From Candidatus Bathyarchaeia archaeon (GTDB lineage: Archaea > Thermoproteota > Bathyarchaeia > Bathyarchaeales > Bathycorpusculaceae), in the NCBI GenBank assembly GCA_049515895.1, contig JBEKTQ010000016.1, positions 32,734-96,733 on the forward strand: a stretch of DNA of 64,000 nt. The letters are read 5' to 3'. The position numbers and the translations under genes are program-made. Below are positions 20,984 through 37,523 of the stretch, one piece after another (positions within the stretch are counted from its first letter, which is position 1; each line of letters starts with the position of its first letter). The notes below the pieces were generated by a model. The model had not been told where the DNA came from. It made no database searches and saw only the letters and a program-made list of their open reading frames with translations.

Positions 20984-21058
20984 TGGGCCGAGCCGGATTT
21001 GAACCGGCGACCTTTCGATTATCAGTCGAACGCTCCAGCCGTGCTGAGCTACCGGCCC
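20984..21058 (-). tRNA. tRNA-Ile(GAT)
   Basis: Reverse complement GGGCCGGTAGCTCAGCACGGCTGGAGCGTTCGACTGATAATCGAAAGGTCGCCGGTTCAAATCCGGCTCGGCCCA folds as a cloverleaf; no encoded CCA. Confidence 0.95.
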
Positions 21059-21087
21059 GCGCTTTTGGTAAAACAAGTTTAATATTA

Positions 21088-21128
21088 TGTTGCTTTATAA
21101 GAATTGCCGTAAATACTTTAAAGCAACA
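21088..21128. promoter_or_regulatory. Back-to-back TATA-type promoters of the divergent tRNA-Ile / tRNA-Arg pair
   Basis: CTTATAAAGCAACA on the minus strand and CTTTAAAGCAACA on the plus strand, each about 35-40 bp from a tRNA 5' end. Confidence 0.6.
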
Positions 21129-21155
21129 CCATCTTTGTGTTGTCGGGTTAGGATT

Positions 21156-21175
21156 GGGCTCGTAGCCTAGCACGG
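21156..21175 (+). repeat. attL, a copy of the first 20 nt of tRNA-Arg
   Basis: GGGCTCGTAGCCTAGCACGG, identical to 37234-37253. Confidence 0.92.
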
Positions 21176-21278
21176 CATACAGTCAAAGTGGTGACGTCAC
21201 CATCAAGTTTTCTCTTGGCTAAACACAACACCCCTCTTTTTCTTTTTTGGTCAGCTGCTCTATCTACGTATTTCTTGT

Positions 21279-22529
21279 TTGCCAGGAGGCCTTTCTAAAC
21301 TGAAGGGAAACAAGCCCGGCTTCAACGAGAGCGACGCCTTCAACCACGTTAATTTTATTCGTGTAGGTCCGGGAGAGTTTGAAGATCTCCTGCGAAGAAT
21401 CAAAATGCTTGACGTCGCCGGGACAGTGAAGCCTGCAGACAAAGCATATGTTTCCCTCAATCCTGACGTGTCAATTTGGCAGAGCAATGTTGGTCCTGGA
21501 AGCTGGAATCATTACCTGACAAACCTCATTTATTTTTCGAAATGCGTGAACCTGACTCCGTCAGAATTGCTTAACCTCAAGGCCAGTGAGGATCCACAAC
21601 ACCGTTATTTTCCAGCTGAGCGATTGATTGAAACTTGGATCAAAATGGCAAGGCAGAAAGGCCTCCCTTCTTCCGTGATCTTCAACACTCTAAACGCGAC
21701 CCGGAGTTTCTTCCTGCACAGTAGGGCGCCTTTGCTCAAGATAGTATTTGTTTACAAGCCTAAACCAAAGAGGATACTGAACGAGGACATACTGAGAAAA
21801 TTCAGGGATGGCTTCAACTTTTACCTTAAAGTCCTGTTTGATTTTCTGATATCAGTCCCGGTGAGAGACGGCCAATTCACCAGGTGCAAGTATTGCGGCG
21901 AAGAGTTATTTCCAAGATGGCGCCACATAACGACGTTCCCAAGAATTGAACCGTACAGTCCATTCATAATCAAGCCACAGAAAGGCCATGATAGCGAGAG
22001 GTATCCTGACGGCCTAAGACAGGTTTGTTTCCTTACGAAAACATTGGCGAGTGAGTTGAACGCTCTGCGTGATTTGAAAGAAGCAATGTTGCAGCGGTCA
22101 CTTACGCCGGACGAATATATATTTACTCATCAAATAAACCAGGCGGGAATTCTACATGTGACGCCAATAACCAGGGAGACAATCGGAACTGTTTTCAGAA
22201 CTAACAAGCGCAAAACTGGAGAGCAGATTAATCCTCAACTCCTGCGCACCTGGGTAAACAGCACTCTGGCGTCAAGAGGCATAGAGAAGCAATTGAGAGA
22301 CATCTACCTTGGCCACACATGCGGGTACGAGATGGGCTACATTATGCAGTTGCTTCCTCAATGGCAGAGGACCTTCCGTAGAGCCAAGGCACTTGAAGCT
22401 CTGGATCTGATGGCCTCAGTGCACCGGCAAGAGAAGGCGCCAAAGCCTGAGTTGGCGCTTAGCAATCAAGAGTATGAGCTGCTGCGTAGCTTACTTAGGC
22501 GTTTCAAGGAGAGTGGAGCTGAGGTTTGA
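21279..22529 (+). CDS. Tyrosine recombinase-like protein 1 (divergent, internal CxxC)
   Basis: VPVRDGQ (R), QLLR (HxxR position), YLGH and downstream Y (EMGY); CKYC insertion. Confidence 0.65.
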   Translation: MPGGLSKLKGNKPGFNESDAFNHVNFIRVGPGEFEDLLRRIKMLDVAGTVKPADKAYVSLNPDVSIWQSNVGPGSWNHYLTNLIYFSKCVNLTPSELLNLKASEDPQHRYFPAERLIETWIKMARQKGLPSSVIFNTLNATRSFFLHSRAPLLKIVFVYKPKPKRILNEDILRKFRDGFNFYLKVLFDFLISVPVRDGQFTRCKYCGEELFPRWRHITTFPRIEPYSPFIIKPQKGHDSERYPDGLRQVCFLTKTLASELNALRDLKEAMLQRSLTPDEYIFTHQINQAGILHVTPITRETIGTVFRTNKRKTGEQINPQLLRTWVNSTLASRGIEKQLRDIYLGHTCGYEMGYIMQLLPQWQRTFRRAKALEALDLMASVHRQEKAPKPELALSNQEYELLRSLLRRFKESGAEV

Positions 22530-22530
22530 A

Positions 22531-22560
22531 CTACACAAGGATAAGAGCTTTCTTGTGTAG
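22531..22560 (+). terminator. Hairpin immediately after the recombinase 1 stop
   Basis: CTACACAAG-N12-CTTGTGTAG inverted repeat; function inferred from position only. Confidence 0.35.
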
Positions 22561-22686
22561 GGGCAAGAGAAACTTGACGCTCGAGGGATCCGTCGACGTC
22601 GACGCCGCGTTGGTTAGTTCATTTATTTTCAGCGAGGTCCCGCGAGCGTCACGGCCGCATAGAGGGATCCAGGAGAGCGTCAGGAT

Positions 22687-23073
22687 ATGAGAGTCTGCAA
22701 ATGCCCTGACTGTGGAAAGATCATTGTTGATAATCCACTGTGGAGGCCGAGCGGTTTCAAATGGGGCGTTGACTTCACCAGCTTCGAAAACTTTGAATTG
22801 ATAGATTCTGAGTTGGCACGCAAACTTAAGCTGGACGGGCAATGGACTGAAGACGAACTCTACTTGTACCGGCTCTCCAGGAACGGCAACGTTTCAAGAA
22901 TGGCTAAGCTGGAGTACACCAAAGAAACGTTTCTGCTGCATGGCCTAACCGATTCGGCAGCTCACAAGAATCCTTTTCCAAAGAAGTTCCATTTTGAGAA
23001 GCTGAAGAAACAGCGTCAGCTTTTGGAGGAGAGGGCGCCATCCGTTACTGCCACGCACAAGGAGGTTCCTTGA
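22687..23073 (+). CDS. Hypothetical protein with N-terminal CxxC
   Basis: 128 aa, CKCPDCG; its stop overlaps the next ORF's start. Confidence 0.6.
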   Translation: MRVCKCPDCGKIIVDNPLWRPSGFKWGVDFTSFENFELIDSELARKLKLDGQWTEDELYLYRLSRNGNVSRMAKLEYTKETFLLHGLTDSAAHKNPFPKKFHFEKLKKQRQLLEERAPSVTATHKEVP

Positions 23074-23501
23074 TGGAGTACATAGTGGATCGACATCATA
23101 AGAACACTACCAAGGTGATCGGCAAGGCCTGCAAAATATGTCGACTCCCAATTCTTGAAGGGGATTATGTCATTACTAAACATCGGGCCCGGATCTATCA
23201 TAAAGCTTGTTTCGAGGCCATGTTCATTGAGGCCCGGAAGACGTCGTCTGAAAGGTGGAGGAAGAGTCATCCTGAAGAGTGCAGGAGAAGACAGAGGGAA
23301 TGGCGCCAGCGTAACCCTGAAAAAGTTAGAGCTGCTCGCAAGAAGCATTATCAGGAACATCGTGAGGAGGAGAGAGCGGCTCGCAAGCGGCGTTATCAGC
23401 TGCATCCTTTCAAGGACTGGACGCCGGAAGAGAAAAAGAAACACTACGCTCAAATTATGAGTAGCCGAAGGAAACGCAGAATGGAGCTAGCCAAGGCATG
23501 A
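23070..23501 (+). CDS. Zn-finger, highly basic protein
   Basis: CKIC...YHKAC followed by R/W-rich helical repeats (WRKSHPE, WRQRNPEK). Confidence 0.6.
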   Translation: MMEYIVDRHHKNTTKVIGKACKICRLPILEGDYVITKHRARIYHKACFEAMFIEARKTSSERWRKSHPEECRRRQREWRQRNPEKVRAARKKHYQEHREEERAARKRRYQLHPFKDWTPEEKKKHYAQIMSSRRKRRMELAKA

Positions 23502-23701
23502 CGAAGAGAGAGCAGCTTCAAACCTCAATGGATAAGGTCCCGTTTTTCTGCTTGGTTGCCTTGGCCGTCATCACCGGGTACTCAGTCGTAAGCGTGATCA
23601 GCGTCCTGCTGAAGGTCTTCATAGTCGGGTACTGCGTGAGTGTAACCTCGCTGATCTTCGTAGCTTACAAGTTCTACTTGCAGGAGAATGTCAAGAAATG
23701 A
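23498..23701 (+). CDS. Small two-TM membrane protein
   Basis: 67 aa, hydrophobic; ATGA overlaps at both ends. Confidence 0.6.
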   Translation: MTKREQLQTSMDKVPFFCLVALAVITGYSVVSVISVLLKVFIVGYCVSVTSLIFVAYKFYLQENVKK

Positions 23702-24552
23702 ACAGCGATATCCCCCAAAAAATGACGAGGCGAACCGTCAAAACAATCAGCAAAACCATGGAGCCAAAGGAGGTTTTTGAATTGATAGCCTCCAAAGAAT
23801 ACGAGTATTCCCCGGACCTGGCGCCAGAATACCACGTCCACGATCGAGCAGGAATGGCCCTGAGCTACCTCACCTTTGGCCGCGTGACTGAGATCTTCGG
23901 AGGCCTTCAGTACCGGCGCATCTACGTTGCTGGACTCTGCTCGGACCCGCGGGATCCACACAACTGGAAAGAGGAAGTGATCGGCAAACATACCGGCCTA
24001 ACGAGGGAGAACGTTCAGGTCGACGAGAATTTTCTGCAGATTGTCACGATGCCGATAGTGAAGAGGAGCGAGAGAATCAAAGCGAAATATGGCCAGGAGA
24101 TAGCTCAAAGGAGTGCGCTAAGATTCCCCTTGAAATGCGGCCTCTACAACAATGCTTTCTATGATCAGCTGGTCCCGTTTGCCTGGTTAGTTCTTGAGTA
24201 CCTGGAGCGTTATGCTCCTGCAGCTGGGAAGCTCTTCCACTACCAGGATGCGCGCGCCTGGTTCATCATCAAGGAAGTAACAGGCCAATTTCCCAACTGG
24301 TTTAGGGCCCAGTCAGACCGGTTCTACAAGCAGTGTCTGTACCGCGGGGATCCCATTGGTTATGCCATCTTCGCCGGGAGAGTGAAGTCCGACAACACGA
24401 TGAGCTATCAGCGGTTCAGCTGGAATGCTGACCTCAAGGATCCCACTATGATCATGGACTTCAAGTGGATAGAGCCGGCAGTGGAGCAGGTCAAGGGCAG
24501 GATCCGGGAGGCTAAGCAGCTGCAGCAGGACGCCTTGGCTACACGTCTTTAA
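23698..24552 (+). CDS. Tyrosine recombinase-like protein 2 (catalytic domain only)
   Basis: YLTFGRVTEI (R box), PNWFRAQ (HxxR position with N), AGR...NTMSY (Y nucleophile candidate). Confidence 0.65.
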   Translation: MNSDIPQKMTRRTVKTISKTMEPKEVFELIASKEYEYSPDLAPEYHVHDRAGMALSYLTFGRVTEIFGGLQYRRIYVAGLCSDPRDPHNWKEEVIGKHTGLTRENVQVDENFLQIVTMPIVKRSERIKAKYGQEIAQRSALRFPLKCGLYNNAFYDQLVPFAWLVLEYLERYAPAAGKLFHYQDARAWFIIKEVTGQFPNWFRAQSDRFYKQCLYRGDPIGYAIFAGRVKSDNTMSYQRFSWNADLKDPTMIMDFKWIEPAVEQVKGRIREAKQLQQDALATRL

Positions 24553-24743
24553 GGCCTCGTGGGATAGGTCTGGACTGCGGTATAGGTGCCACGTGGCATG
24601 TGTCGACCACTCAGGGGGGCCGGTGCCGTCAAAGCGCCTGACGTGCGATTGTTTATTTATTTACCGCTACCACTACTACTAGAAGGATTTTCAGAGAAAG
24701 CAAACGACACGGCCTCATCAAGGGATGGTCGATGTATGGTGAA

Positions 24744-24769
24744 GTGACTTTACGAGCTGCTAAAGTCAC
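24744..24769. other. Candidate tyrosine-recombinase core site (9-8-9 inverted repeat)
   Basis: GTGACTTTA-CGAGCTGC-TAAAGTCAC with an asymmetric 8-bp spacer. Confidence 0.45.
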
Positions 24770-24803
24770 GTTATTTATTTTCCCCAGCTGCCAAAAAAGT
24801 TTT

Positions 24804-24825
24804 CGAGTTTCCACGTGGAAACTCG
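24804..24825. promoter_or_regulatory. parS-like perfect 22-bp palindrome
   Basis: CGAGTTTCCACGTGGAAACTCG; the 16-bp core is repeated at 32236-32251. Confidence 0.65.
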
Positions 24826-24841
24826 GTATTGAAGATCCAGT

Positions 24842-25315
24842 TTAGTGTTTTGGTTTGGGTGACTTGAGTCTATATCCCGCTTTGAGTAGGTCGTCCGGGG
24901 ATTGACTCATCTTCTTAGCCTCTTCAAGCAACACGTTTCTTTCCAGAAATTCTACGGCCTTCTGTCTCACTTCTTGCTCATCATAATCTGGAAAAAGTTG
25001 ATGAATTATCTCATGAAAAATATCGAGGGTTGCTTCAAGCAACGTATCACAATCTGGCGATCCTGCTATAATATCGTCGTCCCAAAAATGATATCTTGAC
25101 CATCTTATCTCATGACCGCGCTTGTCTGTATGCGCGTTTGCTTCATTGTGTTTGCACATGTTGCATCGGCAACCAGAGATAGTTAACTCGCAGAGTTTGT
25201 CGAGCTGCTCATCTGCTAGTCCCTCTCTTGGTACCAAGCTTTTGGCGAGATCCAGAATAAGCTCAAAGAATCTCTTTTGTGAAATCATTTTTGTTATCGT
25301 TCCTGAGTCTTTCAA
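24842..25315 (-). CDS. Small HExxH metallopeptidase-like protein
   Basis: IFHEIIHQLFPDYDE motif. Confidence 0.55.
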   Translation of the reverse strand: MKDSGTITKMISQKRFFELILDLAKSLVPREGLADEQLDKLCELTISGCRCNMCKHNEANAHTDKRGHEIRWSRYHFWDDDIIAGSPDCDTLLEATLDIFHEIIHQLFPDYDEQEVRQKAVEFLERNVLLEEAKKMSQSPDDLLKAGYRLKSPKPKH

Positions 25316-25398
25316 GCTTGTTACTATTTACGTATCAGTGAAAATTTAAGATTAATCCAAGAAGGAAGCGGCAAACTTCAACGAAAAAGGCTAGGGTG

Positions 25399-26460
25399 TC
25401 AGGCTAATCTTTTGTCGACGCGGATCTTCTTTAGGATCTCCCGGGCGCCCTTGTCAGCTCTCACTCTAAGATCCGCCACTAAAGCCAAGTTGAAGTAGTT
25501 ACTCATGAAAACATTGCTTGAAATTCTACCGTGTAAGAAGTCGATTTCTTCGCGTTTGAGCCACTGATTCATGAACGTTGCGTGTTGTTCTCTGACGTCG
25601 GAATACCTTACTGGGATCCCTTTCTTGATTAATCGACGCTGGACCGCATATGTGCTTGCGAACGGAGTCTTCTGAGCGATAGTGTCGATCAGTTGTTTTG
25701 GTGCGTAGCTGATGAATGCCTTCTTGGTGTTCCGGATGAAGATTTTCTTGAAGCGGAAGTGTTCCAGCATTCCGGATTCAGGATTGTAATATTGTTTCTC
25801 GAGGGTCCCTTCTTTGGCCAGTTGAATGATAAGATTGTAACTGTGAAAAGCTTCACTTAACCTCAATCCGGTAACCCCAATGTAATCGAGGAATTCGGTG
25901 AGGTCTGGACGAACAGTTTTAGCTTGGATAACCCAGTTGAATATTTCCTCAGGATTCTTGATTTTTGTCATGCGGTCGATTATGATGTCGTCGATGTTGC
26001 GGCCTGTCCAGCTGAGGCCGTAGGCCCTGACCAGGGAACGGAAGTCATCGTAGCATCCGAGAAACTTTGATAGTGCGCTGAGTGCTTTCAACGGGTTAGG
26101 GCGGATCGTGACTGGCAGCTTTCCGATTTCTGAAAGGTCCTTTGAGAAGAGGCAGTTCTTGAAGAACATCGCTTGGACAACCATTTGCCGCGAATTATGT
26201 TCGGTGTGGTTTTTTAGGAGCCAAGCTTTGAACTCCTGCCAGTCGACTTCTTTGGATAATGGGATTGAGGATAACGTCGAGTATTTTCCGGTGAGCTTGT
26301 CGATTTTCTCCTGGAGCGCGATCTCGCAGCATTTTGATATGTTGATGCTGAGCTCGTGGGCCTTGTCCACGAGTGCTCTGTTGACGCTCAAGGTTACTCT
26401 TTTGATTTTCAGTTTTGGGATTGCCTTGGTTATTATCCTTGTTTCTTGATCGGATGACAT
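25399..26460 (-). CDS. SSV1-like integrase (tyrosine recombinase 3) with N-terminal CcdA-like RHH domain
   Basis: TGLRLSEA, YSDVREQHATF, IDFLHGRISSNVFMSNY; N-terminal RVTLSVNRALVDKAHELSINISKCCEIAL. Confidence 0.8.
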   Translation of the reverse strand: MSSDQETRIITKAIPKLKIKRVTLSVNRALVDKAHELSINISKCCEIALQEKIDKLTGKYSTLSSIPLSKEVDWQEFKAWLLKNHTEHNSRQMVVQAMFFKNCLFSKDLSEIGKLPVTIRPNPLKALSALSKFLGCYDDFRSLVRAYGLSWTGRNIDDIIIDRMTKIKNPEEIFNWVIQAKTVRPDLTEFLDYIGVTGLRLSEAFHSYNLIIQLAKEGTLEKQYYNPESGMLEHFRFKKIFIRNTKKAFISYAPKQLIDTIAQKTPFASTYAVQRRLIKKGIPVRYSDVREQHATFMNQWLKREEIDFLHGRISSNVFMSNYFNLALVADLRVRADKGAREILKKIRVDKRLA

Positions 26461-26538
26461 GATTGTTTTCCTCGTTGTTTACGTAGGATTTTTTTGACTA
26501 AAAAAGGGGAAGTGTTGAATGTTGACTCTGCAACTACT

Positions 26539-26907
26539 CTAGTTTGAAGTTAACTCTGCTGCAGGAGCTTCCCGGATCTCTCGCCTGATTGCTTCGGAAC
26601 TGTTGATTATCAGAAGAGCTCCAGTGCCGTTCTCGTAGGGAAAGAATTCCAGTCGGTCTTTGTTGCTTGTCCACTCTGCGAGTTTCGGCAGGTCCTGAGG
26701 TAGGATCCTGGCCATTATGTGAGCTTCGAAACTCTTTCCCCACTTCAAGCCTGGACTGAAGATGTCTTTGTGCTGCATGTCGGTTACTTCTTTCTCGAGG
26801 AACTGGTCCGTCAGCTGCTCAACGCTCAGGTTGAATTTCTCTGCGAATTGTTGGAGTTCTTTATAGAGGTCCTGTCGGACCGGGATTGAAAACGGTTTTT
26901 GTTCCAT
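26539..26907 (-). CDS. Putative ribbon-helix-helix regulator with extra C-terminal domain
   Basis: Likely start MEQKPFSIPVRQDLYKELQQFAEKFNLSVEQL at 26907. Confidence 0.55.
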   Translation of the reverse strand: MEQKPFSIPVRQDLYKELQQFAEKFNLSVEQLTDQFLEKEVTDMQHKDIFSPGLKWGKSFEAHIMARILPQDLPKLAEWTSNKDRLEFFPYENGTGALLIINSSEAIRREIREAPAAELTSN

Positions 26908-26995
26908 GTTTCCTTTCACCTTTAGATACTTATAGGTATCTACCAGTACCTTTATATTCACAAGTATTTAAATATACTCATAGGTGCATAGAAAT

Positions 26996-27145
26996 ATGGC
27001 TAAGAATATGAAAAGATTTATGATGTCAGTTTCAGATGAAATGCATGCAGAGCTCGAGAAAGAAAGGAAGGAAAGGCGCTTGGAAACAGTCCAGGAAGTA
27101 ACACGGCAAATAGTCGCTGACTACCTCAGAAAGAAGGAACAGTAA
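26996..27145 (+). CDS. 49-aa ribbon-helix-helix (CopG-like) regulator, not in the ORF track
   Basis: Own translation: MAKNMKRFMMSVSDEMHAELEKERKERRLETVQEVTRQIVADYLRKKEQ; AGGTG and TTTAAA upstream. Confidence 0.7.
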   Translation: MAKNMKRFMMSVSDEMHAELEKERKERRLETVQEVTRQIVADYLRKKEQ

Positions 27146-27204
27146 TTTAGCGCTCAACAGATTCTCGTTCAACTTCCTTGGAACAACTGAAGTAGGATTG
27201 CAAT

Positions 27205-27798
27205 ATGCGCAGACTAATGATTTATTACAAAGCCTTGTCTGCTGGGCTATCAATGTTTATTTTTACATTGATTGGAGGGTTCACATTTGGTTCAATTATC
27301 CATGAGGCAGGTCACGCCATTGTAGGAATGGCCGTTGGATTCAGAATCAAGTCATGGTCCATTGCCGGGGTGGTTTTCGCTTCCTATATGCCCAATGGAC
27401 CGGCAAAACTACTAACATTGTTGGCGGGAGGATCCGCAGAAGCGTTGAGCGCTTCGTCCGCTTTTCTCTTTGTCCGCTATCTTGCTCGATATGTCTTCAG
27501 AAAAAACGAGATCATAAAAGTACGATCGATCGATGCTGGAATGAACCGAGGTTTGTCTAACTTTCAACTTCAATTCTTGCCATTTATCCTCTTTGGAATT
27601 GAGGTTGCCTTTTTGTCGTTTATATTTCATGGAGTCGTCGCAGGAATCTGGGAAGGATTATTCAACAGCAGTTATGTTGCTTTCAGTGGTGAACCTGTTC
27701 TCGAGGTGTTTGCGGTTGCTGTATTTTTGTGGATGGCCTTCGAAATACTGTACAGTCGACAAAACAAATATCTGAAAAGTTTAGCCTTCGTGGATTAA
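27205..27798 (+). CDS. Membrane metalloprotease, M50-like
   Basis: IIHEAGHA within a TM segment, LAGG motif, several TMs. Confidence 0.7.
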   Translation: MRRLMIYYKALSAGLSMFIFTLIGGFTFGSIIHEAGHAIVGMAVGFRIKSWSIAGVVFASYMPNGPAKLLTLLAGGSAEALSASSAFLFVRYLARYVFRKNEIIKVRSIDAGMNRGLSNFQLQFLPFILFGIEVAFLSFIFHGVVAGIWEGLFNSSYVAFSGEPVLEVFAVAVFLWMAFEILYSRQNKYLKSLAFVD

Positions 27799-28221
27799 TT
27801 AGGTTAACGCGGCAAAAGGTTCCTCGAGTAACCTCAGAGTTTTTTAGAAATTTGCCTGGGTTACCGACTTCAAAACTTAGTAGTGTTTCCCAGTTTCGTT
27901 TATGCTTGGATTCCACGTTGATGTCGTTGAGATTATTTGGTCCACATTGGCAACTCACATTCATCCACTCATTTGCTCCGTGTGAATTTGTAATGTCCCT
28001 GTCAAAAATCCCAGTGTAACTATAGAAGATTGCTAAGTTTTACGCAACCTATACGTACACACCCTCAAATTCCGTGGACTATTTTTCCATGAAAACTGAA
28101 TCCCTCGTAAGATAGTCCATGAAGAATGTTGAAAACTGCAGAGGATTATCGAACGGCAGCAACAATAAATTACGACAACTCGCCTTCAAAAGCAGAATTC
28201 CAAGCCTTTTCACCTGGGAAT

Positions 28222-28527
28222 TTAGGATGGCAGATCCGGGAGAGACGGGGGAATATCAAGTTTCCATCCTTCTCTCTGTTTCTGCTTAATCGTTTCCAAT
28301 ACCTCAGGTTGACTAACTGCGAAGCAGACATGCGCGCAGCTGCCACCGCTTCCAGGAAAAACAGGTGCCTCGAGACGCAAAAGACTGCTTGTTTTCGTCA
28401 GTGTAGTGTGGTCACAGAGACTGCAGAAGATTCCTCTCGGGGTGATCTGGACGTCGACGGGTCCTAACTTGTCGTCCATTACTTTAACGACTAAACTCAA
28501 GCTTTTCTTCGCTGAGTGTTTCTTCAA
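28222..28527 (-). CDS. Hypothetical protein with Cys/His motifs
   Basis: FCSLCD...SCAHV (SWIM-like); co-oriented with neighbours. Confidence 0.45.
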   Translation of the reverse strand: MKKHSAKKSLSLVVKVMDDKLGPVDVQITPRGIFCSLCDHTTLTKTSSLLRLEAPVFPGSGGSCAHVCFAVSQPEVLETIKQKQREGWKLDIPPSLPDLPS

Positions 28528-28589
28528 CGATGTGCAGCTCCTCTGTCATATTGATAGATTTATGTATAAAAGTTCTTGCAGAGCTGTCG

Positions 28590-29837: not shown

Positions 29838-29914
29838 CTTATTCCTCTTGTTTTTCTTTGGTTTACTTCGTACCTGTGACTTTGGATGCTGCTACTTACG
29901 CTAAGACCGCTCGA

Positions 29915-30130
29915 TCATCCGGGACTCTTGAGATGTAGCGCGTGCTGGAGATCTGTCCGGATGATCTCGAGGCTTCTAATGACGTCTTCGATCGGTGTTT
30001 CTTCTGAGTAGAATACTACAGCTGCGCGGCCGGTGACTGCTGTAAGTTTGGGGCCAAGGACCTTGTAGATTCCCTTTGGGATGTAGGCCAGATGCTGCTC
30101 GGGATTTACTTTGACTGTGAACTCGGCCAA
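29915..30130 (-). CDS. AbrB/MazE-like small regulator
   Basis: FTVKVNPEQHLAYIPKGIYKVLG pattern. Confidence 0.55.
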   Translation of the reverse strand: MAEFTVKVNPEQHLAYIPKGIYKVLGPKLTAVTGRAAVVFYSEETPIEDVIRSLEIIRTDLQHALHLKSPG

Positions 30131-30237
30131 TCTGATTCCTCACTTAAGAAAATATTAAGGTTAATGAGAATTTAATTATTGAAACGAGAAACCTGAAAAT
30201 TTCGAGTTGGAAGGTTCAAAAGCGAAACAAAGAAGTG

Positions 30238-31104
30238 TTAAGTCATACCAATTTCGCTGCATTTGTGGTCGACGTCGAGATTTGGGAAGGACCCGCATCT
30301 TATTATCTTACGGCATTCCGGACAAAAAGCGTGTATCGCCTCTCCGTTTCTTGTGAGCTCCAGGTACTTTGTCAGAACGTCTCCACTTAGCTGATTTAGA
30401 AACCTGGACTCAATATTGAATTTGAAGTACTGGAATACTACTCTTTGATCTTTTTCGCAAAGCCCCTTATACTTCCTCTCAATGAGTTCGTTCATAGCTT
30501 TTCTTTCGCTGCTTTCTTCAGAGTTGCGCGCCAGGTGTGTATTGAAATCTATAAGGATGGTTTTGCCGAATGCTTCTGGGTCAAAGGTGCCTTTAGCTAG
30601 ACCGTCAAACAGTTGACGAAGGAAGTTTTCACCCATCAAAAAATGGAAGGTTGTTGAGTCTGTTGTCTCCTTCAGTATGCTCAATGAGAATTTCCAAATA
30701 GGGTTATCTTGTTGTGGCAGCGAGTCAAACGCTCGAGAGATCAAGTAAGGCCTACTCAGCAGTGCTCCAGCTAAGATCTGACCTTGGAAAGTCAATGAGT
30801 ACATCAACTTGTCTGGGACGGGTCCCCTTTCGCTCTTAACAGTTCCCGTTACTTCAACAAACCCTTTTTTCTCAAGCTTACTGATTAATGGATAGACGAT
30901 GGAAGACGACAGCTGCGTTAACTGGTCTGTCCTACGCATGATTTGATTCCTCGACAGAGGCTTGTTTTCATTAACCATCTTCGTGAGAATGCGGCCAAGA
31001 TTGCCTACCGTTTTCTTGTCGATTCTTTCTCCAAAAATTTGGGTGAGATGTTTCTGCAGAAACCTTGTGTTGCCGTTCCTTTGTTGCGTTTTTGAAGCCT
31101 CCAT
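30238..31104 (-). CDS. Winged-helix regulator with C-terminal Cys cluster (repressor candidate)
   Basis: SSSIVYPLISKLEKKGFVEV...YSLTFQG wHTH; CPEC...C...C. Confidence 0.65.
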   Translation of the reverse strand: MEASKTQQRNGNTRFLQKHLTQIFGERIDKKTVGNLGRILTKMVNENKPLSRNQIMRRTDQLTQLSSSIVYPLISKLEKKGFVEVTGTVKSERGPVPDKLMYSLTFQGQILAGALLSRPYLISRAFDSLPQQDNPIWKFSLSILKETTDSTTFHFLMGENFLRQLFDGLAKGTFDPEAFGKTILIDFNTHLARNSEESSERKAMNELIERKYKGLCEKDQRVVFQYFKFNIESRFLNQLSGDVLTKYLELTRNGEAIHAFCPECRKIIRCGSFPNLDVDHKCSEIGMT

Positions 31105-31182
31105 TTCGAAATTTTCGAAACTTTCAGTTAAACCGTTAAGTTCTCTATGAGTATTTAAGACTATCTAACAGAGGTTAGACAC

Positions 31183-31404
31183 TTGGAAAACAATTACGAC
31201 CAAAAAATCATCCAGTTCTTAGAAACCGCGGAAAACCCCATGGACATAGAGAAGATCCGAATCGAAGTTGGCATCGGCAATTGGAATACAGCATTGAAAC
31301 ACTGTTTAGAGCTCCTGGTTGCCAAGAAAATAAGCGGCCAGAAGACCAGCAAGAGCTGGGTTTTTTGGGCTACATCGAAAGAAGCATTTGTAAAAACAAA
31401 CTGA
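31183..31404 (+). CDS. Small winged-helix DNA-binding protein
   Basis: 73 aa; GIGNWNTALKHCLELL...GQKTSKSWVFW. Confidence 0.65.
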   Translation: MENNYDQKIIQFLETAENPMDIEKIRIEVGIGNWNTALKHCLELLVAKKISGQKTSKSWVFWATSKEAFVKTN

Positions 31405-31420
31405 GGGAGGCAGTCGCAGG

Positions 31421-31561
31421 ATGACGGAGCTGCAGATCAAGATTGAAAAGTGTAGCCAGTGTTTGCATTTTCAAGGAAGAAAGTGTCAGTTAGGCTACAA
31501 CGTCAAAGCACACTCTAAACCCTGCAGTCAAGGGATAGCTCGCGTGAGGCAGCTGCCATGA
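31421..31561 (+). CDS. 46-aa Cys4 microprotein, not in the ORF track
   Basis: Own translation: MTELQIKIEKCSQCLHFQGRKCQLGYNVKAHSKPCSQGIARVRQLP; GGAGG upstream; ATGA overlap with the next ORF. Confidence 0.6.
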   Translation: MTELQIKIEKCSQCLHFQGRKCQLGYNVKAHSKPCSQGIARVRQLP

Positions 31562-31746
31562 ACGAGCGTCACCATAGAATGCCGGATGGCGCCTTAGTCA
31601 TTTGTGATGGAACCCGAGAAGGTTCAGAACTTGGTTCTGCCGGCAGGTGTCCAAAAGCTCCAAGGTGTGCTAACTACAAGGTAAGAAAATGCTTCATAAA
31701 ATGCGCTGACTTCACCGAAAAACAAACGGCTAACTTGGTGTACTAA
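31558..31746 (+). CDS. Small Cys-rich protein
   Basis: 62 aa with 5 Cys; translationally coupled. Confidence 0.5.
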   Translation: MNERHHRMPDGALVICDGTREGSELGSAGRCPKAPRCANYKVRKCFIKCADFTEKQTANLVY

Positions 31747-31747
31747 A

Positions 31748-33154
31748 ATGGAAGCATCTAAGCACGAATTAATTCTTGTTGGATTGCTGCAACCAAACCG
31801 GTTCAACCCAAACGTCATGCAGGCCACGGAGTTCCATGCCTTAAGGCAGGACATGGAGCTGAACGGCCCCGAAGGAATAGACCCGGTCTTGGTCAGTCCC
31901 TACCGCTGCTTCTACATGGGCGAAGACGCCAACCCCTTCTACGTGATCGTCGACGGCGAACACCGCTGGAAAGCGGCCAAGGAACTCTGTTGGAATGAGA
32001 TCCGCTGCGAGGTCCGCGAGCTCAACGAGCAGGAAGCCAAAGTAATCTGCTACCGGAAGAACAAGGACCGCGGCACAATCGACCCACTCAAAGAAGCTGC
32101 CCTCTTCAAGGGTGAACTGGACCTGCAGTTTAGCCAGAAAGACATCGCTGAAATGTTCCTGGTGGATCAGTCGACTGTAAGCCAAAGGCTCAGTCTTTTG
32201 AAGCTCGTCCCAGAAGTCCTTGCCGAAGCAAAAAAGTTTCCACGTGGAAACATTACCGTAAGCCATTTGGAACCTATCGCTTCCCTCCCGGAAGGCGAAC
32301 AGAAAAAGATCAGTCTGGAGAACCGCTGGGAAAAAGGCCAAGCGCGCACAGTCAGGGAAATCACTGACGAGGTGCACCGGATAAAAGAAGAGCTGGCAGC
32401 GAAAGAGTCCTTGAGGAAGGCCCTTGAAACCGCCAAGTTTCCTAAGTGTCCGAAGTGCAAGCAGGCGCCGAGCGCTGCTACTTATCAAAAGCTGCCATGG
32501 GTGCGGTGCTCAAGCGGAAACTACGACCACACCTGGAACTTAGACACGGGAAAACTCGAATATGAATCGACATCGACCTCAAGAAGGACCTCTCAACCAA
32601 GGCCTGAAGTCAGCAACATCATCCGAAGCAACTTCACCATAGACGAGCTCTCAGAAGCGTTTTTTAAAACAATCCACGCAGTGCTGCCGAAGTTAGATGC
32701 TGCAAGCAAAATCTCAATCACTGGTCTAATCGACAAAACCATGTTCATAGTGAGCTTTGACCACGGTCCCAACGGAATGCACGTCTACGTAGACTACGGA
32801 GGACAAAGCATCAGCTTCGGAGCTGAACCAAAACAGTATCACACCGGTCAAAAATCCAAAATAGACATGGGAATTTACCAACCGAAACAAGCGGACCTGG
32901 ACCGACATCTCGAGTTCATTGAGAACGCATTCAAGAACATATTGCTGCCGCTGCCGGAGAAGAAACCGAAGCGCCTCAGAGAAGAGATCCCTGCTGTAGC
33001 TGCAGCTGAAGAAACGCCTCGAGTAGTTCCCTGCGAGTCCTGCAGCAATGACTCTGACAATGGCGGAAGCTGCCACCGGGAACAATTCCACGTCGTCGAC
33101 GGCCATGAAGGCTACTTCTGCGAACACAAAAAACCCTTGGAGCGTAAGCAATAG
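31748..33154 (+). CDS. parB: ParB/Spo0J-family protein with HTH and Zn-ribbon extensions
   Basis: PNRFNPN, IVDGEHRWKAA (GxxR box), DPLKEA, SQKDIAEMFLVDQSTVSQRLSLL HTH. Confidence 0.88.
   Translation: MEASKHELILVGLLQPNRFNPNVMQATEFHALRQDMELNGPEGIDPVLVSPYRCFYMGEDANPFYVIVDGEHRWKAAKELCWNEIRCEVRELNEQEAKVICYRKNKDRGTIDPLKEAALFKGELDLQFSQKDIAEMFLVDQSTVSQRLSLLKLVPEVLAEAKKFPRGNITVSHLEPIASLPEGEQKKISLENRWEKGQARTVREITDEVHRIKEELAAKESLRKALETAKFPKCPKCKQAPSAATYQKLPWVRCSSGNYDHTWNLDTGKLEYESTSTSRRTSQPRPEVSNIIRSNFTIDELSEAFFKTIHAVLPKLDAASKISITGLIDKTMFIVSFDHGPNGMHVYVDYGGQSISFGAEPKQYHTGQKSKIDMGIYQPKQADLDRHLEFIENAFKNILLPLPEKKPKRLREEIPAVAAAEETPRVVPCESCSNDSDNGGSCHREQFHVVDGHEGYFCEHKKPLERKQ
32236..32251. promoter_or_regulatory. 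parS-like palindrome inside parB
   Basis: GTTTCCACGTGGAAAC, identical to 24807-24822. Confidence 0.65.
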
Positions 33155-33156
33155 TT

Positions 33157-34986
33157 ATGACTGATCCTCCCTGCAAGCTTCCGGTCACCTCGGATCTCCC
33201 GCAGACTCCGCCGGCGCCGAACCCTGAAAGAGAAGCCTGGCAGAAAGAAGTGAAAGAAGCAGCTGAGCTCGAAAGAAAGAACCCGATGTACGGCATCTCC
33301 CACAAGTTCTATCCGGTGTATGATGATTTTTGCCCCATGGACAATGAAGGCGTAAACAGCTTAGGCTTCAAGCCGGCCCTGGTTGCCAAGTGGCTACAGC
33401 AAAACGAGAATTTCAAGACCGACCTGGACACGGGGATCCTGTATTTCTACGATGGAAAAAGCTGGATCCCAAACGCGGAGCCCTATCTGGAATTCATACT
33501 CTCAAAGATACTGGACCAAGAAAACAAGCGCAGCTACTTCAACGATATCCTGCATGATTTGAGGGGCTTAACTTACGACAGATTAAAGTTCAGCTCAAAA
33601 ATCGCAGTAGAAAACGGGCTCTTAGACATTGAAACCCAAACACTCTCAGATTTCAACGAGAAAGAAATGGCCTTCCACGAGGTCCCAGTGAAGTATGATC
33701 CAGCTGCTGAGTGCCCGAATTGGGAAGAGTTCATCAAGCAGGTAGTTAACTCTGATGATCTCGCCACGATCCAGGAGTGGAGTGGTTTCCTACTCTTGCC
33801 TGATTACCGCTTCCACAAGCTCTTGTGGGTCCATGGTGAAGGCCGAAATGGTAAGGGTGTTTGGCAGCGCACTATGGAAGGGATCCTGGGAGAAAAGAAT
33901 GTTTCAAGCTTAGGCCTCGAGGAGTTCGACGGAAACCACCGGTTCGCCTTGGAGCGGCTCTACGGAAAACTATTCAATCCATGCTCGGAACCAACAACGA
34001 ACCGCATTCTGCAGACGCCTCTCCTCAAGAAAGCAACCGGCCAGGACACGATCGAAGCGGAGATCAAGGGCAAGCAGGCCAGGATCCAATTCAGAAACTA
34101 CGCAAAGATAACCGTGATCGCCAACAAGTTCCCAAGAGTCAACGACACCACAACGGCCTTCAGAGAGCGACGTCTCTTCATCAAATTTCCCAACGAATTC
34201 ATAGGTAAAGAACAGATCCAGAACCTGGAACAGAACTGGCTAAACAACCCGGAAGAAAAATCCGGGGTCCTCAACTGGATGCTCAAGGGCCTGATGCGTC
34301 TGCTGTCCCAAGGCTACTTCACCGAAAGCAAAACACAGCAGGAAACCGAGATAGAATTCCAGCGGGCCAGCGACACCATCAGCGCCTTCCTAACTGAGAT
34401 CGGGATCCTCGACAAGAACATGGTAACCACCAGGAGCACCGCTTTTGAATCATACAAGAACTACTGCGACGTCTTCGGCCTGAGCCCGGAGAATGACAAA
34501 AAATTCACTCAGAGACTGAAAAACACTCCAAAGATAACTGTTACCCTGATCCATAAGCCAAAAATAGAGCGTGCCTGGAAAGGATTAGGCCTAAGGACCA
34601 TAGACGATGAAGGAAAGATCGCTGCAGCTGGCGCTGCAAATAGTACACTTGATACAGTTGATACACATTTAGGGGAGTTTACACTCCTCCACACTAATGT
34701 GAAAGATTCTTCTCTAGATATAGAGGAGAGTGGTACACGTGTATCAAGTGTATCATCTGTATCAGATTCTAAACCAACCTTTCATGTCAAAGACATTCCT
34801 GCTGGCGAGAAATGCGACTGCGGAAAACTCGCGGTAACTAAAGAGATCGTGACTCCACTTGGCGACACTATGAGACGCTGCCAGGAATGCTTTGAGGATC
34901 TACGCAAAAAGTTCCAAGAAGCCAACTGGAAAAAAGGCTACGAAGAACTGCCTGATTATGAAGAGAGAGGAGAGGAGGATCCGTAA
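33157..34986 (+). CDS. SF3 helicase, D5/P4-family plasmid or virus replication protein (no evident primase domain)
   Basis: IAVENGLLD, YDPAAECPNW, GEGRNGKG Walker A, LKKATGQD...EIKG, AFRERRLFIKF. Confidence 0.9.
   Translation: MTDPPCKLPVTSDLPQTPPAPNPEREAWQKEVKEAAELERKNPMYGISHKFYPVYDDFCPMDNEGVNSLGFKPALVAKWLQQNENFKTDLDTGILYFYDGKSWIPNAEPYLEFILSKILDQENKRSYFNDILHDLRGLTYDRLKFSSKIAVENGLLDIETQTLSDFNEKEMAFHEVPVKYDPAAECPNWEEFIKQVVNSDDLATIQEWSGFLLLPDYRFHKLLWVHGEGRNGKGVWQRTMEGILGEKNVSSLGLEEFDGNHRFALERLYGKLFNPCSEPTTNRILQTPLLKKATGQDTIEAEIKGKQARIQFRNYAKITVIANKFPRVNDTTTAFRERRLFIKFPNEFIGKEQIQNLEQNWLNNPEEKSGVLNWMLKGLMRLLSQGYFTESKTQQETEIEFQRASDTISAFLTEIGILDKNMVTTRSTAFESYKNYCDVFGLSPENDKKFTQRLKNTPKITVTLIHKPKIERAWKGLGLRTIDDEGKIAAAGAANSTLDTVDTHLGEFTLLHTNVKDSSLDIEESGTRVSSVSSVSDSKPTFHVKDIPAGEKCDCGKLAVTKEIVTPLGDTMRRCQECFEDLRKKFQEANWKKGYEELPDYEERGEEDP
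34644..34764. repeat. Two oppositely oriented sets of 9-bp-period repeats within the helicase gene (candidate replication origin)
   Basis: TACACTTGA TACAGTTGA TACAC ... GTGTATCAA GTGTATCAT CTGTATCA. Confidence 0.6.
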
Positions 34987-35540
34987 TGGCGCCAGCTCCT
35001 ACCATCGCATTAAACAGGAATCCGCCTTACATGGACACTGAGGTCCCGTACGAGCGAACCAAAGCAGAGATTGAGGTCCTGCTCAAAAGCTACGGCGTAA
35101 AAGGAATCCGCTGGACGAGCCTGGAAGGCCAGGACGACGTCTTAGAATTCATCATCGAGGCAGAGGTCCGGGGCGTCAAGAAGCAGCTGGGGATCGCCGT
35201 TAAGCCTCCCCATATTTTCATCAAGAAGAAGATCCGCGGCCAATTAGCCAACACGGAGAACATTAACCAGGAGTACCGGTTGCTGTTTCACTGGATCAAA
35301 AGCAAAATCGAAGCGGTTGTCTGGGGCCTCAGCACGATCGAAAAAGAATTCCTCAGCGAAGTACGGCTAAAGCTTCCAGGCGGCCGGGAGACTACCGTCG
35401 GTGAAGTTGTCATAGATCTGATGGGCCGGAATACTCTGGAGAGCTTGCCCTTTTACAATGGCCAGCAACAGGCCCAGCGAGTCAACGACCCCAAAATAAT
35501 CGATGTTACTCCGTCCAAGGAGGATTCCAATGATGGTTGA
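34986..35540 (+). CDS. Hypothetical virus/plasmid protein
   Basis: TEVPYERTKAEIEVLLKSYG...LFHWIKSKIEAV...EFL; coupled to the helicase gene. Confidence 0.7.
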   Translation: MAPAPTIALNRNPPYMDTEVPYERTKAEIEVLLKSYGVKGIRWTSLEGQDDVLEFIIEAEVRGVKKQLGIAVKPPHIFIKKKIRGQLANTENINQEYRLLFHWIKSKIEAVVWGLSTIEKEFLSEVRLKLPGGRETTVGEVVIDLMGRNTLESLPFYNGQQQAQRVNDPKIIDVTPSKEDSNDG

Positions 35541-35766
35541 GTCCTATGAAGATGTGAGCTGTAGAATTTTTCGCAGTTTTTTCAGCATAGACGATGGGGA
35601 AGTATTCAATAAACACCAGGACCTTCTAACAAAATTAATGCAGTACCCTCCAACCAACCTCAAACACCCTCTAACAAACTCACGGCGGAACAAACGATCT
35701 GATTTTGGATTCAGTGAGTGGGTCAGGTACATTCTCGCTAAACTAATGTTGCAGGAGGCCCTTTAA
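35503..35766 (+). CDS. Hypothetical protein (start probably at MMVES)
   Basis: Fills the gap between coupled genes; AAGGAGG upstream of the internal ATG. Confidence 0.45.
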   Translation: MLLRPRRIPMMVESYEDVSCRIFRSFFSIDDGEVFNKHQDLLTKLMQYPPTNLKHPLTNSRRNKRSDFGFSEWVRYILAKLMLQEAL

Positions 35767-35772
35767 AGAAAA

Positions 35773-37170
35773 ATGACTGAGACTGAGATCCGAGGAAAGG
35801 CGCCTGCTCCTTCTGAGAGCATACTTGGCAGTAAGGGAGATGGTTATTCCACCTCTCAGGCGCCCCCTAAAGGACCTCAACAACCCAGCAACACTCGTAT
35901 TGAGAAGCCCTCCATATGCCCTCAATGTGGAAAGTCTCGATTCTTCCATGACGGACATCGTCATCAAGATGGTATGGACCTCCAACGCTATATATGTCGA
36001 GATTGCGGCCATAGGCCCAGCGACATTCTAACTGGGCAAAGCTTATTTGCACAACACCACAAGACTACAATACGCCAAGTATGCGCTATCTCAGAGGAAG
36101 CGAAAAACTTGACTGGAGAAACAACTGAACAAGTCAGTGTTTCGCCAGGAGAAAACTGTACAGAGCTCACCGTCAAAGCTGACATAGACCTAGTGATCGC
36201 AGACTACAAACAGTACATCCAAAAAGAACACATCGTAAACGACTTAACTCTTAGCAAATACGTATCTCGGCTCAAATGGCTTGCCCATGAAATCGGCGTT
36301 AACCTCTTTGAACCCGAAGATTTCAAACGGAAATTAGCATTCAACTCAGAGCTAAGCGCTAAATCGAATTGCAATAAGAACAGTATCTGCAAGGCATACA
36401 TCAGCTTTGTTAAGCGCTATCTTCACATGGAAGACGTCAAGATACCTCACTTTGAGTACAAAACGCCGGAGTACAATGTCCCGGAACCCAACCATATGGA
36501 ATTGCTATACGCTGCACTTAGCTTTCAAATGCAAGTCTTCTGCTTCGTATTAATGGCAACCGCGGCCAGACCTATCGAGGCTCTAAGAATCGAATGGAAA
36601 GACATAGATTTTGCGAGAAAGACAATCGCCATTAACAAGCCAGCTAAACATGGGAGAACAAGGACGGCCCAACTGAAAGGACGCTTCGTCAAAGTCATGG
36701 ATATGCTGGCAGATCTGAAAGACCGTCAAACAACTATTGCCACCTGTCGCAACAGAAAACAAAGAAATCTAGACCTAGTCTTCACATACAAAGACACGGA
36801 TACCGCTGGACAAAACTTCAGGCGAGCAAGAAAAGCAGCAGCTAGACGCTTAGGTATGCCAGAGCTAAGCAAGATTACGTTCTACAGTAATCGCCATTGG
36901 CGAGCAGTTCTTGAACGGTACCTGAAAGGCAACTCAGATGCTGTTGCAAACCTTCTGGGAGAAAACTCTGACAAATATGTCAAAGTTTACGCCCCAATAT
37001 CTGAACGACTCTACGGCAGCGACAAAGAGTGGGAGCCTATCGAAGTCTCTGAAACTGACCCTGACTACAGCGAGAAGATGAACCGTTACGGTGCTGAAGG
37101 GTATCAAGAGTATAACTACAACCGAACGACAGGCAGACATTATTTGCGGAAGGAGAAGAGTGCTTACTAA
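35773..37170 (+). CDS. Integrase (tyrosine recombinase 4) with N-terminal InsA-like Zn ribbon; probable cognate integrase
   Basis: CPQC...QRYICRDCG, TAARPIEAL, AKHG, YSNRH, LLGE...VKVY; ends 63 bp before attR. Confidence 0.88.
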   Translation: MTETEIRGKAPAPSESILGSKGDGYSTSQAPPKGPQQPSNTRIEKPSICPQCGKSRFFHDGHRHQDGMDLQRYICRDCGHRPSDILTGQSLFAQHHKTTIRQVCAISEEAKNLTGETTEQVSVSPGENCTELTVKADIDLVIADYKQYIQKEHIVNDLTLSKYVSRLKWLAHEIGVNLFEPEDFKRKLAFNSELSAKSNCNKNSICKAYISFVKRYLHMEDVKIPHFEYKTPEYNVPEPNHMELLYAALSFQMQVFCFVLMATAARPIEALRIEWKDIDFARKTIAINKPAKHGRTRTAQLKGRFVKVMDMLADLKDRQTTIATCRNRKQRNLDLVFTYKDTDTAGQNFRRARKAAARRLGMPELSKITFYSNRHWRAVLERYLKGNSDAVANLLGENSDKYVKVYAPISERLYGSDKEWEPIEVSETDPDYSEKMNRYGAEGYQEYNYNRTTGRHYLRKEKSAY

Positions 37171-37233
37171 TGCGAAACACCTATCTTGTGCAAAGACTAA
37201 AATGTACGGAATCCATCCAGAAAGTATGGAAAA

Positions 37234-37309
37234 GGGCTCGTAGCCTAGCACGGATTAAGGTGTCGGCCTTCGGAGCCGGAGATCGTGGGTTCAAATCCCA
37301 CCGGGCCCG
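37234..37309 (+). tRNA. tRNA-Arg(TCG); its first 20 nt form attR
   Basis: GGGCTCGTAGCCTAGCACGGATTAAGGTGTCGGCCTTCGGAGCCGGAGATCGTGGGTTCAAATCCCACCGGGCCCG; anticodon loop CT-TCG-GA. Confidence 0.95.
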
Positions 37310-37523
37310 CTTAAATTCCTTCGTAGAAAAACGCAAAGGGATTTTTAGCGAATAGAATTGCAAAAAGTAGAATATATTCAATAATTCTATTGCATAAAGC
37401 AATCAAAGAATGTTTGAAAGTTTAAGATGGGAAAAATCATTGAGTCGTTTCTTTAGAATTTTGGCTGACCGCGAATCGGATCAGAGTCTTTCCAGTGACC
37501 AATTCGAAGACAAATGTTAAGAT

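Follow-up and report, generated by a model that had tools for sequence, protein, structure and literature searches.

An integrative element between two copies of the first 20 nucleotides of the only tRNA-Arg(TCG) gene in a Bathyarchaeia genome

Elements and islands that target transfer RNA (tRNA) genes, such as the P4-like and pNOB8-type ones, classically duplicate the 3' part of the gene and keep the host promoter. Insertion into the 5' part is reported far less often: the account of integration targets in Krupovic et al. 2019 (PMC6563490) gives one such case among 39 tRNA-targeting thaumarchaeal elements and cites a bacterial integration on the 5' side of a tRNA-type gene, and a review (PMC8371274), in its passage on the pTN3-like integrases, calls these 'unique in archaea' for 5' targeting. 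Here we describe a 16,078-base-pair (bp) integrative element found in a stretch of 64,000 nucleotides (nt) from a Bathyarchaeia archaeon; this whole stretch is referred to as the window. The element lies between two copies of the first 20 nt of the only tRNA-Arg(TCG) gene of its host. The premise of the first-pass annotation of the window, that duplication of the 3' half is usual, agrees with the passages of the two sources cited above (PMC6563490, PMC8371274), by which 3' targeting is the rule and 5' targeting rare.

Among described systems the pTN3-like or TKV-type elements of Thermococcales, with their SSV-type 'suicidal' integrases, are the closest. As these are presented in Cossu et al. 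2017 (PMC5495485, including a supplementary-figure legend) and in the corresponding part of the review (PMC8371274), they are archaeal elements with a tyrosine integrase whose chromosomal attachment site (attB) is in the 5' part of a tRNA gene, and the tRNA is rebuilt but 'separated from its original promoter', downstream of integrase-gene DNA. The same holds for the element of the window. In the pTN3-like elements, according to the same passages, the attachment site of the element (attP) lies inside the integrase open reading frame (ORF), the gene is split on integration and the core is about 41 bp long, while in the window element the integrase gene is whole and the 20-bp core lies outside it, 63 nt past the stop codon. 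The integrase itself also differs, having a zinc-finger-like N-terminus and belonging to PF00589 instead of PF16795, and the host is not a hyperthermophile but a mesophilic member of the peat Bathyarchaeia.

CalSub-E1 of Ca. Caldiarchaeum subterraneum, compared here by its description only, is a single case in a tRNA-Ser, and the description in PMC6563490 gives no family-wide pattern or promoter analysis. With the classical tRNA-targeting elements the window element shares an intact integrase gene beside attP, tRNA-derived repeats, a plasmid-like replication module and the reuse of one tRNA as a hot spot; it departs from them in duplicating the 5' part and leaving the promoter behind. Neither this integrase family nor targeting of the tRNA 5' end in Bathyarchaeia was described in the main-text literature searched, which included papers on Bathyarchaeia viruses or metagenome-assembled genomes (PMC10848311, PMC11697101, PMC11705971). 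The principle of 5' tRNA insertion is already known from the pTN3-like elements; what differs here is a non-splitting, zinc-finger-bearing integrase lineage, a short 20-bp core outside the gene and a mesophilic bathyarchaeial host.

The insertion site and its counterparts in related genomes

The source assembly (G000; 3.18 Mb in 53 contigs, rated 100% complete) contains the window as part of contig C16. ARAGORN called a tRNA-Ile(GAT) and a tRNA-Arg(TCG), both of which were matched by the Rfam tRNA model, and a repeat search over positions 19000-40000 revealed one exact pair of 20-nt direct repeats with a spacing of 16,078 bp. The repeat is identical to nt 1-20 of tRNA-Arg(TCG), and both copies lose identity immediately outside it. 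The site is composed of the following features:

20983 to 21058, minus strand: host tRNA-Ile(GAT) (ARAGORN, Rfam), the divergent neighbour of tRNA-Arg at the empty site, adjoining tRNA-Arg in relatives
21059 to 21155: 97-bp host spacer with both divergent tRNA promoters, colinear with the 90-104 bp spacers of six relatives
21156 to 21175, plus strand: core of the left attachment site (attL), an exact repeat copy forming a stub of tRNA-Arg nt 1-20
35773 to 37170, plus strand: cognate tyrosine integrase of 465 amino acids (aa), with an N-terminal C2H2-like zinc-finger region, intact and co-oriented with the tRNA
37234 to 37310, plus strand: intact tRNA-Arg(TCG) (ARAGORN, Rfam, repeat search), whose nt 1-20 (37234-37253) are the core of the right attachment site (attR)

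The window thus holds a plasmid-like integrative element of 16,078 bp between two 20-bp cores that are the first 20 nt of the host's only tRNA-Arg(TCG). Since the crossover lies at the 5' end of the tRNA, attL consists of the host promoter and a 20-nt stub, and the complete tRNA at attR sits behind element DNA, namely the integrase stop codon followed by a spacer of 63 nt. A direct repeat made of the 5' part of the tRNA, a stub beside the host promoter and an intact gene at the far end are the marks of 5'-targeting elements, and all three are present. The geometry proposed in the first-pass annotation was borne out in each of these respects: the repeat corresponds to tRNA nt 1-20, its left copy forms a stub that follows the host TATA box (TTTAAA at 21117-21122) in a spacer colinear with the empty sites of relatives, and the intact tRNA lies 16 kb away, 63 bp after the integrase stop. 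The search for a second tRNA-Arg(TCG) gene that it had recommended gave none in the 100%-complete assembly, the gene at 37234-37310 being the only one with that anticodon. The codon CGA is used at 6.55 per 1000 codons in long host ORFs, and therefore the displaced tRNA must be made.

The left and right flanks were each searched separately in 40 relatives. In six genomes of the same genus (G001, G002, G003, G004, G019 and G022) the alignments showed tRNA-Ile and tRNA-Arg as divergent neighbours 90-104 bp apart, which matches the predicted empty site with a spacing of about 97 bp; before the core these six sites are colinear with the left flank of the window, and from the core onward they are colinear with the tRNA. 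The same adjacent pair, judged by coordinates only, is present in G008, G010 and G023, which brings the empty sites of the genus to nine. At least four relatives (G013, G016, G011 and G020) hold other elements at the same core. In G013 the stub lies beside tRNA-Ile and the intact tRNA 21,675 bp away, adjoining an integrase 82-83% identical to that of the window; G016 has the same layout spanning about 31.8 kb, with an integrase 37-38% identical, while in G011 and G020 the stub and the tRNA are on different contigs. Likeness between the window element and that of G013 is confined to the two ends, and to about 90 nt at each end in the case of G016. Integration is established by these empty sites together with the parallel insertions at the same core.

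To the right of tRNA-Arg, synteny with relatives is lost (window 37311-41028; compare G003:C1:1493251-1494692). A 213-aa ORF, an ORF for an Nse4_C-like kleisin (38162-38989) and one for an SMC-like ATPase (38989-41028) are 68-80% identical to genes in more than 20 relatives, where they are far from the tRNA pair (about 190 kb in G003), and the genes that flank the tRNA pair in G003 are found on contigs C21 and C4 in the genome of the window. The gene order has been rearranged here, one breakpoint lying at the tRNA, in a manner that recalls the inversions driven by integrases in Thermococcus.

Some further variants of the locus were observed. In L003/L041 (G021:C2) the spacer between tRNA-Ile and tRNA-Arg is about 290 bp, compared with about 97 bp, the extra sequence is unlike both the host spacer and the element arms, and a TTTTTTAATG box lies about 31 nt before the tRNA. 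L030 (G024:C64) has a partial tRNA-Arg copy at 1808-1873 (nt 1-66, 95% identical), about 870 bp upstream of a host-type promoter and the intact tRNA (2676-2752), 1.1 kb from tRNA-Ile, a layout that fits neither simple 5' nor simple 3' integration. The tRNA-Arg(TCG) alleles of L031, L047, L113, L114, L119, L128 and L129 carry about 20 additional nt, presumably an intron, behind the anticodon, and the same 5' core is occupied by elements in both intron-bearing and intron-less alleles.

The integrase, its relatives and the element arms

The 465-aa integrase scored 36.3 bits against PF00589 (cut-off 27.1) over residues 250-407 and matched the integrase family phrog_1 with an E-value of 8.2e-20. 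Alignment of four members of the integrase family showed that R266, R374/R377 and Y402/Y406 are invariant; these may be the catalytic Arg...Arg...Tyr. The family profile matches C2H2 zinc-finger proteins at the N-terminal positions 56-112, with an E-value of 2.3e-12 to a designed finger protein. The ORF is uninterrupted after integration, its stop lying 63 nt before the core, and the homologues in G013, G011 and G016 are likewise uninterrupted. No PF16795 match was obtained in the Pfam scan of this protein, which with its unsplit gene and its PF00589 assignment stands outside the SSV-type, pTN3-like group.

A survey of genome loci, limited to one representative genome per species, returned 17 loci that encode a relative of the integrase with 35-89% identity. 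A co-oriented tRNA-Arg follows the integrase match by 48-133 nt in all 16 assessable loci, the seventeenth running off its contig; in one of the 16 (L049, on the same contig as L062) the target is Arg(CCG) instead of Arg(TCG). Among metagenome and viral loci, 22 of 23 showed a co-oriented tRNA-Arg after the integrase and the remaining one runs off its contig; these 23 were examined out of 28, the matches of L127 and L131-L134 being truncated or 26-46% identical. The genome, metagenome/viral and genus-wide integrase sets overlap and are not independent. Because the relatives constantly hold the same position relative to the tRNA, we strongly infer that the 465-aa integrase is the recombinase responsible for the insertion.

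Integrase matches were found in 47 of 80 genomes of the genus. A wider set, composed of 40 fetched loci and four from the genome of the window, gave 22 loci out of 44 with a co-oriented tRNA within about 250 nt downstream (Arg-TCG, Arg-CCG, Arg-GCG, Arg-TCT, Pro-GGG, Asp-GTC, Gly-CCC and His-GTG), three with an oppositely oriented tRNA, which is the usual 3' arrangement, and 19 with no tRNA within flanks of about 700 nt. In a 41-protein tree, constructed by a quick maximum-likelihood search with midpoint root and with the Shimodaira-Hasegawa-like approximate likelihood ratio test (SH-aLRT) as its only support measure, a branch with an SH-aLRT of 100 holds 19 rows. Seventeen of these have a co-oriented downstream tRNA, with Arg-TCG, Arg-CCG, Pro-GGG, Asp-GTC and Gly-CCC as targets, and the other two are a contig end and a locus with no tRNA in view. 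The 465-aa integrase is thus very probably a member of a group, found in this genus of Bathyarchaeia, that has the front ends of Arg, Pro, Asp and Gly tRNA genes as its targets. A relative in G087 (29% identical) is accompanied by a 21-bp repeat of nt 1-21 of tRNA-Arg(GCG), located 19,060 nt upstream; for seven other integrase-tRNA pairs no 5' stub was found within the up to 20 kb fetched upstream. A 13-nt match in L105 was rejected as a 5' stub, being a T-arm similarity between two different tRNAs.

A remnant in the genome of the window was also noted. On contig C25 (1736-2245) the C-terminal part of an integrase (38% identity, residues 361-431) lies directly upstream of a tRNA-Gly(GCC), and the arm beside this tRNA (…TCCATCCTGAAGCATG…) resembles the right arm of the window element. 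A 5'-end insertion into a second tRNA of this genome seems to have decayed here.

The two ends of the element carry conserved arms:

21176 to 21249, plus strand: left arm (P' arm) with CATAC, a palindrome and a T-rich tract, conserved in attL ends
37204 to 37233, plus strand: right arm (P arm) directly before the core, …TCCATCCAGAAAGTATGGAAAA, conserved across family attR junctions

The left arm contains an imperfect 12-bp palindrome, GGTGACGTCACC, at 21190-21201 and the T-rich tract at 21236-21249. About 95 nt after the attL core, including the palindrome and the T-tract, are conserved in all five left ends (G000, G013, G016, G011 and G020). The left arm is a putative integrase-binding site and also a putative terminator, for the host promoter in the integrated form or for the integrase transcript in the free form. 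The right arm is likewise a putative integrase-binding site; in the junctions of the wider group a CATGG-like motif occurs at about -10.

Two more genes of the element encode recombinases:

21279 to 22529, plus strand: ORF1, 416 aa, divergent tyrosine recombinase, accessory, the first gene after attL
25399 to 26460, minus strand: 353-aa homologue of SSV-type ('archaeal phage') integrases with a CcdA-like N-terminus, intact (PF16795, E 3.9e-7; PF07362, E 7.8e-7; phrog_5127)

ORF1 has no Pfam match, its atlas neighbours are integrases and PF00589 was detected in five of 57 homologues. By itself its sequence gave no sequence match in the PDB, while a profile of 22 ORF1 sequences matched the XerC-like tyrosine recombinase 4a8e (E 8.8e-6) with invariant R196, R323, H346 and Y354. 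From the profile match and the PF00589 homologues it follows that the element holds three tyrosine recombinase genes. BLASTP and profile-profile comparison revealed no specific relationship between ORF1 and the 465-aa integrase. Within the 353-aa gene no stretch of 16 nt or more matches a tRNA of the genome, and for lack of such a stretch the possibility that this protein gives the element a second tRNA site in this host was dropped. A homologue of the 353-aa integrase on contig C4 of the same genome is in two parts about 5.5 kb apart, 113702-114535 (C-terminal) and 120060-120209 (N-terminal), the latter abutting tRNA-Arg(TCT) at 120231-120306; this arrangement is the signature of a self-splitting integrase insertion.

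With its intact integrase ORF and perfect repeats, the element is potentially excisable. The 16,078-bp circle junction that the first-pass annotation had proposed to look for was not seen: contigs of four DNA runs, compared with 20500-37800, contained no back-joining junction, which is a weak negative because rare variants are dropped from contigs. This does not refute integration, which the empty sites and parallel insertions establish. Joints that skip from 21114 to 37234 (run X3) and from 21144 to 37234 (run X4) were rejected as excision products and are empty sites of related strains, since their spacers contain many differences.

Transcription of the displaced tRNA and competing explanations

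The regions upstream of 40 host tRNAs yielded a 12-nt promoter profile with the consensus AAAGGTTAAATA, whose matches start mostly at -51 to -38. Two boxes near the ends of the element, resembling a B recognition element (BRE) and TATA box, were scored with it:

21112 to 21123: host tRNA-Arg BRE/TATA-like 12-mer (TTTAAA at 21117-21122), now leading only into the stub, 5.2 bits
37192 to 37203, plus strand: BRE/TATA-like box AAAGACTAAAAT, candidate replacement promoter, starting at -42 from the tRNA, 8.7 bits

The second box falls within the AT-rich CAAAGACTAAAATG at 37191-37204. At -42 it is within the modal position of host tRNA promoters, so that a match to the host profile is present at the usual distance. 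In 20,000 draws of random genomic 70-mers, 1.9% reached at least 8 bits and 0.9% at least 9 bits, giving a P of about 0.01-0.02; the boxes of the six empty sites score 7.1-10.3 bits. In the remnant found in G007 the integrase is gone, and the tRNA is preceded by an unrelated ORF of 907 aa with a membrane-anchor-like tail and T-tracts. The likeness of this remnant to the attR of the window begins at -40, beside the box, and the box is retained, which is the pattern that would be expected of a working box promoter.

On this evidence we lean towards the view that tRNA-Arg is made from the box promoter in the right arm of the element, with or without added read-through. Transcription of the tRNA would now come from element DNA, the main source being the BRE/TATA-like box 42 to 31 nt upstream of the tRNA, which would yield a short leader. 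Part of the supply may also come from read-through of the co-directional ParB-primase-integrase block, as no oligo-T tract separates the integrase gene from the tRNA. Transcripts started at the orphaned host promoter would cover the stub and end at the left-arm palindrome and T-tract, a putative terminator that would keep them out of the element; in the free circle, this tract would terminate transcription of the integrase gene.

Several observations speak against this account. The profile is crude, being built from only 40 sequences. At -55 to -35, eight of 17 family attR junctions score at least 7 bits and nine stay below 6 bits; in the wider set six of 22 junctions reach 7 bits and 16 fall below, those at Pro, Asp and Gly tRNAs having no recognisable box. 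The box is not family-wide, so that a family-wide promoter is not claimed. It forms the margin of a conserved block that extends from -42 to -1, and the conservation of this block may reflect integrase binding instead of promoter function. With respect to the element as a whole, the right flank is not syntenic with relatives and the locus has therefore also been rearranged, ORF1 and the 353-aa protein are two further recombinase genes to which no role is assigned, the attP form was seen in none of 22 assessable metagenome/viral contigs (a weak negative, since contigs drop rare variants), and the contig depth over the element in run X1 (41) matched that of the flanks (39.6 and 36.8). The first-pass proposal of the box as promoter is no more than plausible: the box scores well against the host profile and is kept in the G007 remnant, but nine of 17 family members are weak there. 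That a host tRNA has come under element control is likewise a possibility and not a finding.

If the element had no promoter of its own for the tRNA, the latter would be the 3' tail of ParB-primase-integrase transcripts, cut out by RNase P and 3' processing enzymes, and the conserved -42 to -1 block would be integrase-binding DNA. Such processing from read-through transcripts has been proposed for pTN3-like elements. Integrase and tRNA are co-oriented in all assessable relatives, every gene from 31183 to 37170 is on the plus strand, the longest T run in the 63-nt spacer is two, and over half of the family is without a good box. Runs of five or more T within 110 nt before the tRNA were found in one of 22 family spacers compared with 553 of 1498 regions (37%) downstream of long host ORFs, a contrast that is suggestive only, because the family members are related. 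Yet the position of attP already entails co-orientation, which is no independent evidence, and to tie a needed single-copy tRNA to a possibly repressed integrase operon would seem fragile. The G007 remnant keeps 40 nt beside the tRNA, box included, without an integrase, and read-through is unlikely there because of the unrelated gene and T-tracts upstream. Read-through as the only source is a possible explanation, though a rather unlikely one.

As to the enzyme that inserted the element, the alternatives to the 465-aa integrase have far less room. ORF1 is a tyrosine recombinase whose start lies about 100 nt from the core, with a homologue (61% identity) in the G013 element, and it, or the 353-aa SSV-type protein, might have been the inserting enzyme with the 465-aa protein as cargo. 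However, among the fetched loci, four other attL ends included, the ORF1 homologue occurs only in G013; the left ends of G016, G011 and G020 share the core and the left arm yet open with unrelated small ORFs. The 353-aa gene is intact and contains no tRNA-like stretch, whereas SSV-type genes are split on their own integration, and the 465-aa type adjoins the tRNA in every assessable case, down to 35% identity. We consider this assignment very improbable. Barely credible is the absence of any site-specific integration, with the 5' end of the tRNA duplicated by misassembly or an unrelated rearrangement. The window does belong to a metagenome-assembled genome, in public runs contigs end within the tRNA, and the loss of synteny on the right would fit. 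But attL is crossed without mismatch by contigs of two runs from two studies (X1, which may be the source of the window itself, over 21032-36040, and X2 over 21032-23783), and attR is spanned by a 49.7-kb metagenome contig that is 100% identical over 33273-39667 but may not be independent of the sample of the window. The exact empty sites in relatives likewise contradict it, as do independent elements that have the same ends and occupy this core in other species.

Gene content of the element and its significance

The 21 ORFs of the element were scanned against Pfam, PHROGs and NCBIfam. Besides the recombinase genes described above, the recognised genes are:

30238 to 31104, minus strand: PadR-like winged-helix regulator, divergent from the replication block (PF03551, E 4.4e-5, below the gathering score)
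31748 to 33154, plus strand: ParB-like protein (PF02195, PF17762; phrog_4715, E 8.6e-21)
33157 to 34986, plus strand: P4/D5-family primase-helicase, the replication protein (PF19263, PF08706; TIGR01613, E 4.5e-54; phrog_864, E 1.3e-72)

The scan gave only replication, partition, regulator and integrase matches, while three further ORFs had weak, uninformative matches. No capsid or packaging genes were recognised among the 21 ORFs, 13 of which had no match at the cut-offs used, so that a novel virus is still conceivable. To judge from these genes, the most fitting name for the element is a cryptic plasmid-like integrative element. It contains two exact copies of a 17-nt palindromic repeat (AGTTTCCACGTGGAAAC), at 24806-24822 and 32235-32251, 7.4 kb apart, which may be an operator or binding site.

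Two observations concern the window outside the element. A further tyrosine integrase (45801-46958, plus strand; 385 aa; PF00589, E 6.7e-16), 29% identical to that of the element, adjoins a dip in GC content (37-38% over 43000-46000) with ORFs of no known family and no called tRNA, and the region may be another island. At 19252-19431, alternating 10-nt units TTGACGTTAG / TTGACTTTTG are repeated at least 13 times in register, about 190 bp upstream of a gene for a BrkB-family membrane protein (19619-20782).

Insertion at the 5' end forces an element to keep its target tRNA expressed, a problem that ordinary 3' insertion avoids. Discussion of it has so far concerned one group of archaea, hyperthermophiles with the self-splitting pTN3-like integrases. 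In the present case an integrase lineage that looks unrelated and does not split its gene arrives at the same outcome; it is widespread in one genus of peat Bathyarchaeia, a class whose plasmids and integrative elements have barely been described. Several tRNA targets, full elements, remnants and empty sites are available as natural replicates, so that the source of transcription of the displaced tRNA is directly testable. The 20-bp core, the conserved arms and the zinc-finger integrase also make up a compact candidate system for site-specific recombination in archaea without genetic tools. The locus further indicates that element DNA can permanently take the place of tRNA promoters in these genomes.

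A broader interpretation, which as a whole we regard as doubtful, is that this zinc-finger, non-splitting lineage of Bathyarchaeia is specialised for the first 20 or so bases of tRNA genes, with the right arm as a ready-made tRNA promoter and the left arm as a terminator, and that an essential single-copy tRNA has become dependent on element DNA. If this were true, the element would be stabilised, as any deletion reaching its right end would silence the tRNA, and the remnants in G007 and G014, in which only the tRNA-proximal arm is left and the host promoter is gone, would be the trace of a permanent promoter replacement by mobile elements.

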